Source: Clostridia bacterium (lineage in GTDB: Bacteria > Bacillota > Clostridia > UMGS1883). Taken from it: a stretch of DNA of 64,000 nucleotides. Location of the stretch: NCBI GenBank assembly GCA_045596985.1, contig JAZODM010000044.1, positions 6,222 through 70,221 of the forward strand, given 5' to 3'. This document shows positions 2,573 through 56,435 of the stretch, piece after piece. The notes beneath the pieces were generated by a model that was given only the letters and a program-made list of their open reading frames with translations, had not been told where the DNA came from and ran no database searches. Positions within the stretch are counted from its first letter, which is position 1, and every line of letters starts with the position of its first letter. Made by a program: the position numbers and the translations under genes.

Positions 2573-5500
2573 ATGGCAAGACAGAAAAAAACCATGGATG
2601 GTAACACCGCTGCCGCATATGTCTCATATGCGTTTACAGACGTTGCTGCCATCTACCCCATTACGCCTTCCTCTAATATGGCTGAGGTTACAGACGAATG
2701 GGCTGCAAAAGGAAAGAAGAACATATTCGGAAGAACGGTAAAGATTGCTGAAATGCAGTCTGAGGGCGGTGCTGCAGGTGCAGTTCACGGTTCTCTTACA
2801 GCAGGTGCTCTTACCACTACTTATACTGCTTCTCAGGGTCTTCTTCTTATGATTCCCAATATGTATAAGATTGCAGGTGAGCTTCTTCCGTCAGTTATTA
2901 ACGTATCTGCACGTGCTCTTGCTTCACATGCACTTTCAATTTTCGGTGACCATCAGGACGTATATGCGTGCCGTCAGACAGGCTATGCAATGCTCTGCTC
3001 TGTAAATGCGCAGGAGGCTATGGACCTTGGTGCAGTTGCACATCTTACAACTCTTAAGTCAAGAGTTCCGTTCCTTCATTTCTTTGATGGCTTCAGAACA
3101 TCTCACGAATATCAGAAGGTAGAGTGCTGGGATGACGAGCAGCTCAAGAAGCTTATCGATATGAACGATGTTGAAAGCTTCCGCCGTCGTTCTCTTAATC
3201 CTGAGCATCCCGCTCAGCGCGGTACTGCACAGAACCCCGACGTTTTCTTCCAGGCAAAGGAAGCAAACAACAAGTTCTATGATGCAGTTCCCGAAATCTG
3301 CCAGAACTATATGGACAAGGTTAATGCAGAAATCGGTACAGATTACAAGCTGTTTAACTACTACGGTGCAGCAGATGCTGAGCACGTAATCGTTGCTATG
3401 GGTAGTGCCTGCGACACTATGGAAGAAACAGTTGATTACCTTACAAAGAAGGGTGCTAAGGTTGGTCTTATCAAGGTTAGACTTTACAGACCTTTCAGTG
3501 CTAAGCACCTTATCGAGGCTATTCCTGCTACTGTTAAGAAGATTAGCGTTCTTGACAGAACAAAGGAATGCGGCAGCATCGGTGAGCCTCTTTACCTTGA
3601 TGTTGTTGCAGCTCTTCGTGACAGCCAGTTCAAGGATATCGAAATCTTCGGCGGACGTTACGGTCTTGGTTCAAAGGATACAACTCCTGCTCAGATTATC
3701 GCTGTATTTGGTAACAACGATAAGAAGAGATTTACTATCGGTATCAACGATGATGTGACATTTACATCTCTTGATATTACAGAAAATCCCGACACAACTC
3801 CCGAGGGTATTACAAGCTGTAAGTTCTGGGGTCTTGGTGCTGACGGTACTGTTGGTGCTAACAAGAACTCAGTTAAGATTATCGGTGACCACACTGATAT
3901 GAACGTTCAGGCATACTTTGACTATGACTCAAAGAAGTCAGGCGGTCTTACAGTATCTCACCTTCGTTTCGGTAATGCGAAGATTACAAGCACATACCTT
4001 ATCAACAAGGCTGACTTTGTTGCTTGCCACAAGGCTTCTTATATCAGAAAGTACGATATGGTTAGCGACGTTAAGCCCGGCGGTGTATTCCTTCTTAACT
4101 GCCCCTGGACAAAGGCAGAGGAGTTCGAGGCACATATCCCCGGCCAGGTTAAGCGTTACATTGCTGAAAACAACATTCAGTTCTATGTAATCGACGGTGT
4201 TGCTATCGGTAAGGAAATCGGTCTTGGTAACAGAATTAACACAGTTCTTCAGTCTGCATTCTTCAAGCTTGCAAATATCATTCCTGCTGACGATGCAATC
4301 AAATATATGAAGGACGCTGCTACAGCTTCTTACTCAAAGAAGGGTGAAGCTATCGTTAAGATGAACCACGACGCTATCGATATGGGTGCACAGAAGGTAG
4401 TTAAGGTTGACGTTCCCGCTTCCTGGAAGGATGCAAAGGACGAGGATCTTTCTGTTAAGTTTGACGGCGAAGGAAAGCTTATTGACTACATCAATAACAT
4501 CCTTACACCTATCAACTCTTTTGCAGGTATGAAGCTTCCCGTTTCTGCGTTTGTTCCTTATGCTGATGGTGAAGTTCCGCTTGGATCTTCTGCATTTGAG
4601 AAGCGTGGTATCGCTATCGACGTTCCCGAATGGAAGAGTGAAAACTGTATCCAGTGTAACTTCTGTTCTTATGTATGTCCTCACGCTTGTATCCGTCCTG
4701 TAGTTCTTACAGAAGAGGAAGCAAATAACGCTCCCGAGGGTATCAAGTATATCAATATGACAGGTCTTAACGGTCTTTACTTTGCAATGGCTGTATCTGT
4801 ACTTGACTGTACAGGTTGCGGCTCTTGTGCAAATGTATGTCCCGGTAAGAAGGGCGAGAAGGCTCTCGTTATGCAGCCTCTCGAAACTCAGGAAGCGAGC
4901 CAGGCAGTATTTGATTACGCAATCAAAGTTCCTGCAAAGAAGGAAGTATTTGAGAAGTTTAAGGAAACAACAGTTAAGGGCAGCCAGTTCAAGCAGCCCC
5001 TCCTCGAGTTCTCAGGCGCTTGCGCAGGCTGCGGTGAAACACCTTATGCTAAGCTCGTAACTCAGCTTTACGGCGATAAGATGTACATTGCAAACGCTAC
5101 AGGTTGTTCTTCAATCTGGGGTGGTAGCTGCCCGTCAACTCCTTACACAGTTAACGAAAAGGGCGAAGGTCCTGCATGGGCTAACTCTCTCTTCGAGGAT
5201 AACGCTGAGTACGGTTACGGTATGTACCTTGCACAGAACACTCTCCGTGAAGACCTCGTTAAGAAGGTTGAGGGTGTTAAGGAAACTGCTGATGATGCTG
5301 CTAAGGCTATCATTGACAAGTTCCTTACAACAAAGGAAGATGTAAATGCTAACAAGGTTGCTGCAGAAGAGCTTGTAGAAGTTCTTTCTAAGATGAACAC
5401 ACCTGAGGCAGCAGAAATTCTTAAGGATAAGGAATACCTTTCCAAGAAGTCTGTATGGATCTTAGGTGGTGACGGCTGGGCATACGATATCGGCTACGGC

Positions 5501-6126: not shown

Positions 6127-6162
6127 CAAAAACATCGCAGGAAAATTCCTGCGATGTTTTTG
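6127..6162. terminator. bidirectional rho-independent terminator (stem CATCGCAGG...CCTGCGATG)
   Basis: Perfect hairpin aaaaacatcgcagga/tcctgcgatgttttt with an A-run on one side and a T-run on the other. It sits between convergent PFOR (+) and the SLOG gene (-). Confidence 0.8.
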
Positions 6163-6163
6163 C

Positions 6164-6598
6164 TTATACAGTTATTCTTAAAATAGTTTTCTTTTTTCTT
6201 CGTGCATAATCCAGCGTTGTTGCAGCACCGCCAAAGCTATGTGTTACATATGCAATAACAAAATCTGATTGCTCTACCATATATTCATTTCTTTTTGATA
6301 TAGCAAATTTAGGAGGAGTTTTCTCGATGGGTGGGTATATGGTGTAATCACATATGTCGGTATTATATTTTTTGTTAAGATATGGAATTACAAGTATCGA
6401 AGTTATATGTGGATATATTTCTTTTAGTTTTTTTACTGTTTCTGCACAAAGACGGTCAAAGCTTCCGTAGCCGCCCAATAAAAATTTATCAGCACCGTTT
6501 TTGATTAAATTTTCAATCTCATAGTATAGTTTTTCTGCAAGAAAAGAATGTTCAGATACGGAAAGACTGCCGTGTCCGCAAAATGTTACTGTACTCAT
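6164..6598 (-). CDS. DUF1273/YpsA-like SLOG-family protein
   Basis: A 144-aa protein. The motif pattern (FCGHGSL...FLLGGYGSFD...YPHITSILVIPY) resembles B. subtilis YpsA/DUF1273. The coding DNA is clearly AT-richer than its neighbours. Confidence 0.55.
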   Translation of the reverse strand: MSTVTFCGHGSLSVSEHSFLAEKLYYEIENLIKNGADKFLLGGYGSFDRLCAETVKKLKEIYPHITSILVIPYLNKKYNTDICDYTIYPPIEKTPPKFAISKRNEYMVEQSDFVIAYVTHSFGGAATTLDYARRKKKTILRITV

Positions 6599-7628: not shown

Positions 7629-7644
7629 ATTGAATGTGAATAGC

Positions 7645-7686
7645 AAAAACCATCGCAGGAATTTTCCTGCGATGGTTTCATTTTGT
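7645..7686 (+). terminator. rho-independent terminator (stem CATCGCAGG...CCTGCGATG, second copy)
   Basis: Hairpin aaaaaccatcgcagga/tcctgcgatggttt followed by a T-run. The stem is near-identical to the hairpin at 6127-6162. Confidence 0.8.
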
Positions 7687-11315: not shown

Positions 11316-11903
11316 ATGGGAAAGCCCTTGTTTATACTTGCATCAAAATCTCCGCGAAGGAAGCAGCTGCTTCGTAGTATTGGACTTGATGCACAGATAA
11401 TCCCTGCAAATATTGACGAGAGCAAACTTAAAAATCTGCCGCCCGAAAAAATGGTGACACAGCTTGCGATGCTTAAGGCGACAGATGTAGCGCGCTCGTT
11501 TAAGGGGGAAACATACGTTATCGGTGCAGATACGTGCGTGCATATTGACGGGGAAATCCTCGGAAAACCGCGTGACATTGCCGATGCAAAAAGAATGCTT
11601 AATAAGCTCGGCGGGAGGGTGCACGAAGTATATACCGGCTACTGTGTGGTAAACTGCAAGAGCGGCAGCGCAGTAGCAAAGTGTGAAAAAACCCTCGTTA
11701 CATTCCGTAGCCTTTCTGAAAAGGAGATTGACGCGTACATAAAAACGCGTGAGCCTATGGATAAGGCAGGTGCATACGGAATTCAGGAAAAGGGTGCTAT
11801 GTTTATAGAGAAGATAGAGGGAGATTATTTTAACGTTGTCGGACTTCCCCTATGCGCACTTGCACAGATGCTGCGTGACGAGTTTAGTTTGGAAGTAATG
11901 TAG
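11316..11903 (+). CDS. maf: Maf-like nucleoside triphosphate pyrophosphatase
   Basis: The LASKSPRRKQLL N-terminus and the GAD...V..K motif, ~195 aa. Confidence 0.85.
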   Translation: MGKPLFILASKSPRRKQLLRSIGLDAQIIPANIDESKLKNLPPEKMVTQLAMLKATDVARSFKGETYVIGADTCVHIDGEILGKPRDIADAKRMLNKLGGRVHEVYTGYCVVNCKSGSAVAKCEKTLVTFRSLSEKEIDAYIKTREPMDKAGAYGIQEKGAMFIEKIEGDYFNVVGLPLCALAQMLRDEFSLEVM

Positions 11904-11939
11904 TCGTCGGAGAGCCAAGCTGGTTACGGCTTAAAAAGG

Positions 11940-11977
11940 GAAATTTCGTATAATACTGCAGAAAATTCTGCAAATAT
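11940..11977 (+). repeat. 38-nt promoter-like module, identical copy also at 38086-38123
   Basis: gaaatttcgtataatactgcagaaaattctgcaaatat contains a TATAAT box and the palindrome TGCAGAAAATTCTGCA. It lies 20 nt upstream of the mreC start. Confidence 0.7.
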
Positions 11978-38013: not shown

Positions 38014-38047
38014 GGGGTGTGACAAGATTATTTTGTCACACCCTTTT
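38014..38047 (+). terminator. rho-independent terminator after gerW
   Basis: ggggtgtgacaa-gattatt-ttgtcacaccc followed by tttt. Confidence 0.8.
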
Positions 38048-38322
38048 AGGCATAAGGGAGTCGAACCCGATATGGTTTAAAAACAGAAATTTCGTATAAT
38101 ACTGCAGAAAATTCTGCAAATATACGACAGTATTATTCTTGAATTTTCTTTGTCTTATAACAAAATTTCTTGTTTTTAAACTCTTCGACCTTAAACGCAG
38201 GAAAATTTAATATAATTTTTATGCGAAGGACGAAGATAGGCTGACGCCTTTCGAGGACGACAAATAAAAAGAATAAAAATTTAACAAGTTTAAGGCATAT
38301 TGGGTTCGACTCCCTTATGCCT
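38048..38322. mobile_element. MITE-like non-coding element with 27-bp terminal inverted repeats (1 mismatch)
   Basis: Left IR aggcataagggagtcgaacccgatatg at 38048-74. Right IR catattgggttcgactcccttatgcct at 38296-322. No ORF inside. It contains the 38-nt module shared with the mreC upstream region. Confidence 0.55.
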
Positions 38323-38345
38323 AAATAAAAGGAGGGAGTACATAT

Positions 38346-54210: not shown

Positions 54211-56160
54211 ATGAAACAAATGAACAGACGACCCCCGATGCCTCCACCTATGAGTGGAGGAAAAATGAAGGTTGATTTTAAAACGGTCAAAAGACTGCTT
54301 TCATATATGAAGGAATATAAGCTGAAGTTTGTTTTTGTGCTTATATGCATAGTGCTGAGCGCAGGAACAAATGTTGCATCGTCGCTTTTTCTGTCTGTGC
54401 TTATAGACTCCTATATTACTCCGCTCCTGATTGAAGCAATCCCTGATTTTGCAGGCCTTTTCAGAGCAATTGTGCTGATGGGCGGAATATATGTGATTGG
54501 TGTTCTTGCAACGCTTTTTTACAATAGAACAATGTGTATAATAACGCAGGGCGTCCTTAAAGATATCAGGGATGAAATGTTTTCGCATATGCAGAGCCTG
54601 GAGATAAAGTATTTTGATACTCATTCACACGGCGATATAATGAGCCATTATACAAATGATGCAGACACTCTCCGACAGATGCTTTCAATGAGTGTTCCGC
54701 AGGCATTTTCATCAATTATCACAATTATAAGCGTTTTTTGCGCTATGCTCATACTCAGCGTATGGATGACGCTTTTTGCGGTAGTATTTTTATGGCTTAT
54801 ATTAAAGCTTGTCAAGGTTGTGGCAGGCGGCAGCGGAAAGTATTTCAGAAAACAGCAGCAGTCTCTTGCTGATGTTAACGGATATATCGAGGAAATGGTT
54901 CACGGACAGAAGGTGGTTAAAGTTTTCTGCCGTGAAGAAAAAGTACAGGAGACCTTTGATGAAAAGAATGAGGAGCTGTTTAAAAATGCAACTGCCGCAC
55001 ACAGCTATGCAAACATACTAATGCCTGTGATGAACAATCTCGGATATGTACTTTATGTATCGGTCGCAATAGTGGGCGGTATACTTGCGCTTATGAATGT
55101 GCCAAATGTGTCGTTAAAGGGTATAAATGTATTGACACTTGGTATGATTGCATCATTTCTTCAGTTGTCACGAAATTTCCTTATGCCGGTATCGCATATT
55201 TCTCAGCAGCTCAATGCGATTATATCTGCATTGGCAGGTGCAGAGAGAATTTTCAGACTGCTTGACGAAAAGCCAGAGTACGATGAAGGATATGTCACTC
55301 TTGTAAATGCAAAGTATGATGAAAACGGTAATCTTACAGAAACGGACAGGCGTACAGGTATATGGGCGTGGAAGCATCCTCATAAGGACGGCGCCCTTAC
55401 CTATACACAGGTCAAGGGTGATATAGTGCTTGAAGAAGTTACCTTCGGCTATGAGGAAAATCAGACGGTACTGCACGATGTTTCAATCTATGCGCATCCG
55501 GGGCAGAAGGTTGCCTTCGTAGGTGCGACAGGTGCAGGAAAAACGACGATTACAAACCTTATAAACAGGTTTTACGATATAGCAGACGGAAAAATCCGAT
55601 ACGACGGAATTAATATTAATAAAATACGCAAAAGTGATTTGCGCAGGAGCCTGGGCGTAGTATTGCAGGAGGTAAATCTCTTTACGGGAACAGTTATGGA
55701 GAACCTTCGCTATTCAAATCCCAATGCAACAGACGAGGAATGTATTGCGGCGGCAAAGCTTGCCAATGCTCACGGCTTTATACAAATGCTTCCGCAAAAG
55801 TATGATACGGTGATTTCCGGAGGTGGCAGCAATCTTTCACAGGGGCAGCGCCAGCTTCTCTCTATCGCGCGTGCTGCAGTGGCGGATCCCCCTGTTATGA
55901 TCCTTGACGAGGCGACCTCCTCCATTGATACACGTACAGAGGAAATTGTTCAAAAGGGTATGGACCAGCTTATGCATGGCAGAACGGTATTTGTAATTGC
56001 CCACAGGCTTTCTACAATTAAGAACTCAGATGTTATTATGGTTTTAGACCACGGTCGTATTATTGAAAGAGGAAACCATGAAGAGCTTATTGAAAAAGGC
56101 GGCACATATGCAAAATTATACCAACAACCACACGAACCCGATGCGCCCTACGCTTGTTAA
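54211..56160 (+). CDS. ABC exporter, fused TMD-NBD, heterodimer partner 2
   Basis: Walker A GATGAGKTT, signature LSQGQRQL, Walker B MILDEATSSID. An extra ~70-aa insertion lies between the TMD and NBD. The start may be ATG 54220. Confidence 0.9.
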   Translation: MKQMNRRPPMPPPMSGGKMKVDFKTVKRLLSYMKEYKLKFVFVLICIVLSAGTNVASSLFLSVLIDSYITPLLIEAIPDFAGLFRAIVLMGGIYVIGVLATLFYNRTMCIITQGVLKDIRDEMFSHMQSLEIKYFDTHSHGDIMSHYTNDADTLRQMLSMSVPQAFSSIITIISVFCAMLILSVWMTLFAVVFLWLILKLVKVVAGGSGKYFRKQQQSLADVNGYIEEMVHGQKVVKVFCREEKVQETFDEKNEELFKNATAAHSYANILMPVMNNLGYVLYVSVAIVGGILALMNVPNVSLKGINVLTLGMIASFLQLSRNFLMPVSHISQQLNAIISALAGAERIFRLLDEKPEYDEGYVTLVNAKYDENGNLTETDRRTGIWAWKHPHKDGALTYTQVKGDIVLEEVTFGYEENQTVLHDVSIYAHPGQKVAFVGATGAGKTTITNLINRFYDIADGKIRYDGININKIRKSDLRRSLGVVLQEVNLFTGTVMENLRYSNPNATDEECIAAAKLANAHGFIQMLPQKYDTVISGGGSNLSQGQRQLLSIARAAVADPPVMILDEATSSIDTRTEEIVQKGMDQLMHGRTVFVIAHRLSTIKNSDVIMVLDHGRIIERGNHEELIEKGGTYAKLYQQPHEPDAPYAC

Positions 56161-56435
56161 ATTCATGCTCTTACAGTTTGTCGGTCTTGTAAGGCGTCAG
56201 CCTTACTTCACCCTGCCGCACTGCAATAGCATTAAATTTTTCGGTGCGTAGGGTCAAAGAGTATAAAAAGTGCAAATTTACTTTCAGGCAAGTAAAATCA
56301 CGCAGAGAATACTATCGTATTTTCAAGGGATTTTGCGCTGCATCAAACTAAATTTGCCTTTTTACACCGCATTGGGTTCATGTGATTGTTGGTACGCCGG
56401 TGCATTTGAATTATCATAAAGGAAGGAACAAATAT

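Follow-up and report, generated by a model that had tools for sequence, protein, structure and literature searches.

[quoted passage not shown] Elements of this kind (Correia, RUP, ERIC, bcr1-like) are already known; the family itself is not previously catalogued, and neither the literature searched, including a 2024 survey of prokaryotic MITEs, nor Rfam contains a description of it. The element is small and non-coding, has terminal inverted repeats and a TA duplication, occurs as dispersed copies, and is polymorphic for presence or absence: a relative with 97% protein identity (L049) is without the second full copy of the window (copy 2), and two relatives with 80% identity (L051 and L052) are without the copy next to ytfJ/gerW (copy 1). 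A MITE was the first of the options named by an earlier sequence-only reading of this DNA, and the many copies, together with empty sites with a TA duplication for both window copies, bear it out. Copy 1 and its immediate flanks comprise:

38015–38043, + strand, terminator-like hairpin 3' of ytfJ/gerW (repeat finder), followed by TTTT at 38044–38047
38047–38048, unstranded, left flanking TA of copy 1 (empty sites in L051 and L052)
38049–38321, + strand, copy 1, element proper, 273 nt, non-coding (empty-site comparison with L051 and L052)
38322–38323, unstranded, right flanking TA of copy 1 (empty-site comparison)

The 27-bp arms of copy 1, 38048–38074 and 38296–38322, are reverse complements with one mismatch, as had been read from the sequence; the mismatch is G38069 versus T38301, a G-T pair on the + strand, and a repeat finder extends the arms to 38045–38081 and 38289–38325 (37 nt, 92%). 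A 20-nt arm probe, allowed up to 3 mismatches, matches only the two copy 1 arms in the window and nothing in 100 dinucleotide-shuffled windows (0/100). The palindrome ataatactg...cagtattat is indeed nested inside the copy, and the nhmmer match to copy 1 covers 38046–38324 (E=8.6e-86). The extent originally proposed, 38048–38322, has real arms but is slightly too long, since the empty sites set the element proper at 38049–38321 and the outermost A...T of the repeat as first read is thus part of the duplicated TA. No open reading frame of at least 40 codons lies within the element, and its substitutions follow a base-pairing pattern and show no codon pattern.

The gene 5' of copy 1 encodes a Spore_YtfJ/GerW protein (Pfam, on the syntenic orthologue), and the copy sits 4 nt past the hairpin that follows it, the hairpin and TTTT together occupying 38015–38047; the insertion point is the TA that closes the T-run. 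The end of the copy is 22 nt from the ATG of the 480-amino-acid protein, whose N-terminus is signal-peptide-like. The setting first described, after a gerW terminator and before a secreted-protein gene, therefore stands as regards the hairpin and the signal-peptide-like protein, but the hairpin is not called as a terminator by a consensus scan because it has only 4 T. It is also present in the relatives with an empty site.

Gene order in this region, ScpA-ScpB-DUF2953-YtfJ-480aa-YitT, is kept in relatives. In L051 and L052 the spacer between YtfJ and the 480-amino-acid gene is 65 nt, is without the element, and reads hairpin-TTTAAAAATAAAAGGAG (in a longer reading, hairpin-CACCCTTTAAAAATAAAAGGAGAG), and the window reads CACCCTTT-TA-[38049–38321]-TA-AATAAAAGGAGGG. 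These empty sites come from a species with only about 80% protein identity, and 1–2 nt differ around the junction. We note that in two further relatives (L050 2330–2440 and L053 2190–2450) the same spacer holds another, mutually related sequence of about 110–250 nt 5' of the hairpin, and this spacer seems to be a recurrent landing place for insertions.

The window contains two full copies and one 5' fragment (nhmmer), the latter two being accompanied here by the gene end that copy 2 cut off:

56121–56392, − strand, copy 2, 272 nt (window repeat search and nhmmer; empty site in L049)
56395–56419, + strand, orphaned end of the ABC-exporter gene, its final codons and stop, CGCCGGTGCATTTGAATTATCATAA (..GAFELS*) (alignment with L049)
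11901–11977, + strand, truncated copy between maf and mreC, consisting of the left arm, which has diverged, and the 5' half of P2 (see below), 77 nt, 81%

Copy 2 is flanked by TA at 56119–56120 and 56393–56394 and is inserted in the 3' end (the penultimate codons) of the ABC-exporter gene 54211–56160, in the opposite orientation. It shares the architecture of copy 1, with an interior identity of about 66%, and the sequence of its terminal stem differs from that of copy 1, altered on both sides. The ABC-exporter reading frame runs 40 nt into copy 2, giving the protein end AKLYQQPHEPDAPYAC / LYQQPHEPDAPYAC. All 29 of the 29 other homologue sequences printed end in LYTG[A/V][F/Y]E[L/M] plus one or two residues, most commonly LYTGAFELS/A/E; in the window the conserved C-terminal ..TGAFELS is gone and 12 element-encoded residues (QQPHEPDAPYAC) have been gained. 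The empty site is found in L049 (GCA_045650105.1), whose orthologue of the exporter is 97% identical: its DNA reads GCAAAGCTA-TA-CACAGGGGCATTTGAATTATCATAA (...AAGCTA-TA-), and the occupied site of the window reads GCAAAATTA-TA-[56121–56392]-TA-CGCCGGTGCATTTGAATTATCATAA (...AAATTA-TA-). When copy 2 and one TA are taken out, the length, the reading frame and the ..GAFELS* ending of L049 are regained. For both window copies, then, the occupied site corresponds to the empty one with the element and a single additional TA added; this is what a target-site duplication predicts, and TA...TA flanks fit equally well an element that carries its own TA and inserts beside a TA without duplication, two cases that cannot be formally distinguished.

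A 38-nt block of copy 1 had been reported as identical to one upstream of mreC. The identity, to 11940–11977, is real, but the block is no independent motif: it is the core of the 77-nt, 81% match at 11901–11977, which is a truncated second-hand copy of the element (nhmmer, model positions 10–81, E=4e-8). The maf–mreC spacer is 93 nt long and consists largely of this fragment, which stops 19 nt short of the start codon of mreC and includes a TATAAT-containing stretch. As a separate observation in the window, two 42-nt stretches, 6129–6170 and 7637–7678, are 86% reverse-complementary to one another, and each is a palindrome (AAAACATCGCAGGAAAATTCCTGCGATGTTTT); they are probably related bidirectional terminator hairpins and have no relation to the element.

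The copy count suggested as a check on the earlier reading gives, besides the two full copies and the fragment in the window, about 30 elsewhere. A scan of one genome per species with two conserved blocks of the element (AATTTAACAAG-N13-GGGTTCG) found 33 loci, with up to 3 matches per genome, of which about 29 are real; L002, L018 and L019 are clearly unrelated. Metagenomes, scanned with another pattern that used different anchors, contributed 7 further real copies, and an nhmmer profile built from 19 full copies yielded extra partial copies in the fetched loci. In all, roughly 20 genomes or metagenomes of Clostridia contain about 30–36 copies outside the window, at unrelated sites, and the neighbouring genes vary from locus to locus. 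The hosts of the real loci are nearly all Clostridia MAGs or isolates (Eubacteriales, Oscillospiraceae, Congzhengia, Feifaniaceae, Lawsonibacter, Acetivibrio sp. MSJd-27). The plasmid and phage collections gave no match to the element, and the pattern scan of viral contigs gave one chance match in a phage coding region. Full copies are 272–286 nt long; all 22 of the 22 full copies have terminal inverted repeats and 17 of them have TA...TA flanks, and interior identity is 85–98% for copies that occupy separate loci in separate species-level genomes. The finding that had been put forward as speaking against a MITE, one copy only that orthologous loci conserve as a 5' untranslated region, is the opposite of this distribution.

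Many copies are degraded. Internally deleted copies are present in L013, L014 (14–160) and L024, and remnants of the 3' part only in L003, L004, L009, L022 and L027. One orthologous intergenic site in two species, L009 4765–4846 and L024 5906–6016, holds two different deletion derivatives, one of them 5'-truncated and the other internally deleted; the insertion is therefore older than the species split and is now decaying. We note that six independent remnants (L003, L004, L009 at two sites, L022, L024 and L027) keep only the last ~50–60 nt, with homology beginning at model positions 220–234, often just 5' of a ribosome-binding site. This clustering of breakpoints may reflect a true preference, such as deletion favoured at AAAATT repeats, or an artefact of the search pattern falling in the same stretch. 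L010 contains two diverged partial copies tail to tail with a 14-nt gap (4721–4804 on the + strand and 4819–5041 on the − strand). In five loci (L012, L017, L031, L042 and L046) the contig ends inside an element copy, as is expected of an assembly-breaking repeat.

The copies crowd gene ends: the stop codon of the upstream gene falls anywhere between 36 nt within the element and a few nt beyond its edge, and where genes of an operon are tightly packed the next start codon follows 12–43 nt after the element. Most copies read TA+A/G at either end, so that a TAA or TAG stop codon whose TA receives the element is replaced by a new stop; the long upstream reading frames of L007, L008 and L025 each terminate exactly on the TA+R junction codon, and with copy 2, whose first base is C, and L030 the upstream frame continues 10–13 codons into the element. 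Such stop regeneration may account for the tolerance of many copies exactly at gene ends. After full-length copies were de-duplicated, about 10–14 are co-oriented with neighbouring genes and 6–7 opposed; the 3:1 orientation bias obtained with all matches shrinks to these numbers, the partial copies being biased by the search pattern.

As has been proposed for RUP, mobility would depend on a DDE transposase supplied in trans, one of the IS630/Tc1-mariner type that duplicates TA. A TA target with TA duplication, typical of IS630/Tc1-mariner-type elements, is what the two window copies show, subject to the same ambiguity of the TA. Neither an autonomous element with matching ends nor a transposase turned up in searches of the window, of about 450 kb of loci and of the plasmid and phage collections, and an IS630-type mobilising enzyme is a guess, made by analogy and solely from the TA duplication. 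Read-through transcription probably covers copy 1 together with ytfJ and the 480-amino-acid gene, because the ancestral 65-nt spacer, filled by the hairpin, has no room for a promoter. Its transcript would carry a nearly perfect 29-bp double-stranded stem, likely an RNase III site or a block to exonucleases by analogy with Correia and ERIC; such an RNase III-cuttable stem is plausibly a consequence of co-transcription, not the reason for the presence of the sequence.

The closest parallels are MITEs of other bacteria. RUP of Streptococcus pneumoniae inserts at TA and is scattered between genes in many copies; its TA targets and its matching repeats have led to its mobility in trans being attributed to IS630-Spn1 (PMC2229807). 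RUP and the present element are both Firmicutes MITEs with terminal inverted repeats, stop codons in all frames, TA insertion and dispersed copies; however, RUP is 107 bp with short repeats resembling those of a known IS, whereas the element is about 275 bp with 29–37-bp repeats, has no sequence similarity to RUP, no partner IS found and a conserved multi-helix interior. The Correia or NEMIS elements of Neisseria have ~24–26-bp terminal inverted repeats with TA termini and are co-transcribed, their stem being an RNase III substrate (PMC2229807, PMC2649163). They resemble the element in these repeats and termini and in their positions between and at the ends of genes, but belong to another phylum and sequence family, are 104–157 bp and have sequence-conserved repeats, an IHF site and promoters; the outer repeats of the present element vary with compensation, and the consensus scan found no promoter-like site in it. 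ERIC (IRU) of the Enterobacteriaceae also has TA termini and is co-transcribed, with an orientation-dependent effect on mRNA stability (PMC2229807); like the element it is an imperfect palindrome with TA termini, but it is a 127-bp single long hairpin of Proteobacteria. The bcr1 repeat of the Bacillus cereus group is transcribed, has a non-conserved genomic distribution and keeps a double-stranded fold by compensatory changes (PMC3184786). It shares with the element a MITE-like character, a Firmicutes host and the compensatory base changes, and differs in being about 155 bp, in having 5-bp direct repeats instead of TA and in its unrelated sequence. The element is thus set apart from all four by its sequence, host range and size and by its three-way-junction interior with co-varying repeats.

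That interior was analysed in the 22 full copies (alignment A3), in which the consensus fold, like most folds of single sequences, is a three-way junction that either strand can form; it joins the paired ends (P1), a long hairpin (P2) and P3-P4-P6. Its parts in copy 1 are:

38046–38074, + strand, P1 5' strand, the left terminal inverted repeat with the conserved GAAC box (29 pairs, 91.5% paired)
38075–38181, + strand, P2, long hairpin GTTTAAAAACAGAAATTT ... AAATTTCTTGTTTTTAAAC with the apical hairpin ATAC-GACA-GTAT (repeat finder, pairing counts)
38182–38188, + strand, J2/3, conserved unpaired TCTTCGA at the three-way junction (alignments A2 and A3)
38189–38196, + strand, P3 5' strand CCTTAAAC, pairing with 38288–38295
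38235–38252, + strand, P6 hairpin GATAGGC-TGAC-GCCTTTC (7 pairs, 5 changed on both sides, 94.8% paired)
38288–38295, + strand, P3 3' strand GTTTAAGG, abutting the P1 3' strand (pairing counts)
38296–38324, + strand, P1 3' strand, the right terminal inverted repeat, which holds the 'T-loop-like' motif GGGTTCGA (pairing counts)

Over all helices 92.5% of cells are paired in the 22 full copies, and 48 of 81 pairs are changed on both sides, versus 13–21 in controls slid by 1–3 columns; none of 500 shuffles reaches the observed pairing values. By helix, 18 of the 29 P1 pairs are changed on both sides, the 18 basal pairs of P2 are 94.5% paired with 12 changed on both sides, and P3, which encloses P4 and P6, is 98.3% paired with 5 of 8 pairs changed on both sides; the P6 hairpin reads GATAGGC-TGAC-GCCTATC in the family consensus fold, and the AACTC and GAC that flank J2/3 are invariant. 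The outer ~12 bp of P1 diverge among copies (GGCATAAGGGAG, AGCCGAGGGGAG, AGCATTAGAGAG, CCAACAATCACA, GGCACTCGTAAG), both arms always changing, and the inner GAAC/GTTC box is nearly invariant. Compensatory changes preserve the fold in AT-rich Christensenellales-like genomes and GC-rich Oscillospiraceae alike, the GC-rich versions L021 and L029 sharing their architecture with the AT-rich ones. In the minimum-energy fold of copy 1 (38182–38238) a local hairpin, CTTCGACCTT..CGCA with TGCG.AAGG.CGAAG, replaces P3, and a two-state fold is possible; the competing hairpin shows little covariation and is weakly supported overall, one position co-varying from T-A to G-C in 4 copies. The consensus scan found no promoter-like or terminator-like site inside the element, and weak −35/−10 candidates spotted by eye are not conserved across copies. 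Integron attC sites and IS200/IS605-type end hairpins were rejected as identities, the conserved boxes being misordered and the ends pairing with each other, not locally.

Symmetric divergence of terminal repeats would be unusual if their sole role were binding by one transposase, and this drift, together with the conserved junction fold, goes beyond ordinary cut-and-paste transposition. It is unlikely, though worth stating, that the three-way junction is a functional single-stranded nucleic acid needed for mobility (as RNA or as transposition-intermediate DNA), or a portable RNA module. As a full alternative to the transposon we rate distinctly low the idea of a mobile structured nucleic acid, acting as RNA, as a single-stranded DNA intermediate or as an RNA module of host transcripts, with inverted repeats that would be a helix under selection and not transposase-binding sites. 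The covariation in every helix (up to five pair types at some positions of the long-range 8-bp P3), the common architecture of GC-rich and AT-rich versions, the constant compensation in outer P1 and the 85–98% identity of interiors across loci and species-level genomes argue for it, but G·U pairs (42) and A·C mismatches (32) over 22 copies, with other mismatches as expected for random decay, indicate no preferred transcribed strand, and the preference for the + strand that two copies had seemed to show in their wobble pairs is absent from this count. The occurrence of full copies in both orientations to their neighbours, the lack of promoter-like and terminator-like sites in the consensus scan and the persistence of numerous truncated copies also weigh against a functional fold. 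So does the fate of a guide-RNA role, in which the variable arms would match target flanks: the mean longest match is 5.2 nt to a copy's own flanks and 5.1 nt to those of other copies, which is no signal. The symmetric Watson-Crick conservation fits pairing that is relevant on both strands or in DNA, and template-switch correction of quasi-palindromes could also produce it.

The other two explanations fare worse than this. A cis-regulatory leader RNA or processing stem of the downstream 480-amino-acid gene is very improbable: copy 1 does lie directly 5' of that gene's ribosome-binding site in the same orientation, and its region folds far better than shuffled sequence (z = −13.9), but the opposite strand folds equally well (z = −13.3), the orthologous loci are entirely without the element, which refutes a leader as the origin of the sequence, the element adjoins unrelated genes elsewhere and lies antisense between genes at 56 kb, and Rfam 15 at gathering score matched no family in the whole window. 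Least probable of all is a tRNA-derived or tRNA-mimicking element whose ends would form an acceptor/T-arm minihelix for RNase P, RNase Z or another tRNA enzyme. The sequence-only reading had called the ends tRNA T-arm-like, and in one subfamily the 3' arm AGGGG-TTCGACT-CCCCT-CGGCTTA matches a T-arm and acceptor strand perfectly; conservation within P1 is highest in GGGTTCG and its partner GAAC, and among the chance-level matches that were all that Rfam gave at permissive E-values in four regions is one of 13 nt in the copy 1 region to the T-arm of tmRNA (10.5 bits, E=0.043). The T-arm is nevertheless not a conserved structure of the family, the local hairpin being 72.7% paired versus 72.1% in shuffled or slid controls with no covariation; copy 1 could form 3 G-C pairs only, and copy 2, L015 and L020 essentially none. 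ARAGORN found 0 tRNA or tmRNA genes in the 64-kb window, and no tRNA-clan match came near threshold in three copies. The invariance of GGGTTCG is partly built in by its place in the search pattern; the GAAC of the 5' arm lies outside that pattern and is independently conserved. We treat the tRNA likeness as a coincidence, at most a trace of ancestry and not a working feature.

Reading the feature as a copy of a MITE gives a simple annotation rule: a sequence of about 275 bp with TA flanks, a GAAC/GTTC arm box and AATTTAACAAG near its 3' end is a mobile insertion. The rule covers uncultured gut and rumen Clostridia, and rules out annotation as a regulatory leader, an sRNA or a tRNA relic. The element breaks metagenome contigs, rewrites gene ends, as where the conserved C-terminal motif of the ABC exporter has been replaced, and, given the co-transcription we infer, adds a long double-stranded stem to operon transcripts. 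Should the fold be required for mobility, this would explain why both terminal repeats always change together; should it be an RNA module, it would reshape the processing or stability of operon transcripts wherever it lands. The family allows the question of whether folding is under selection in bacterial MITEs to be put to a concrete case.
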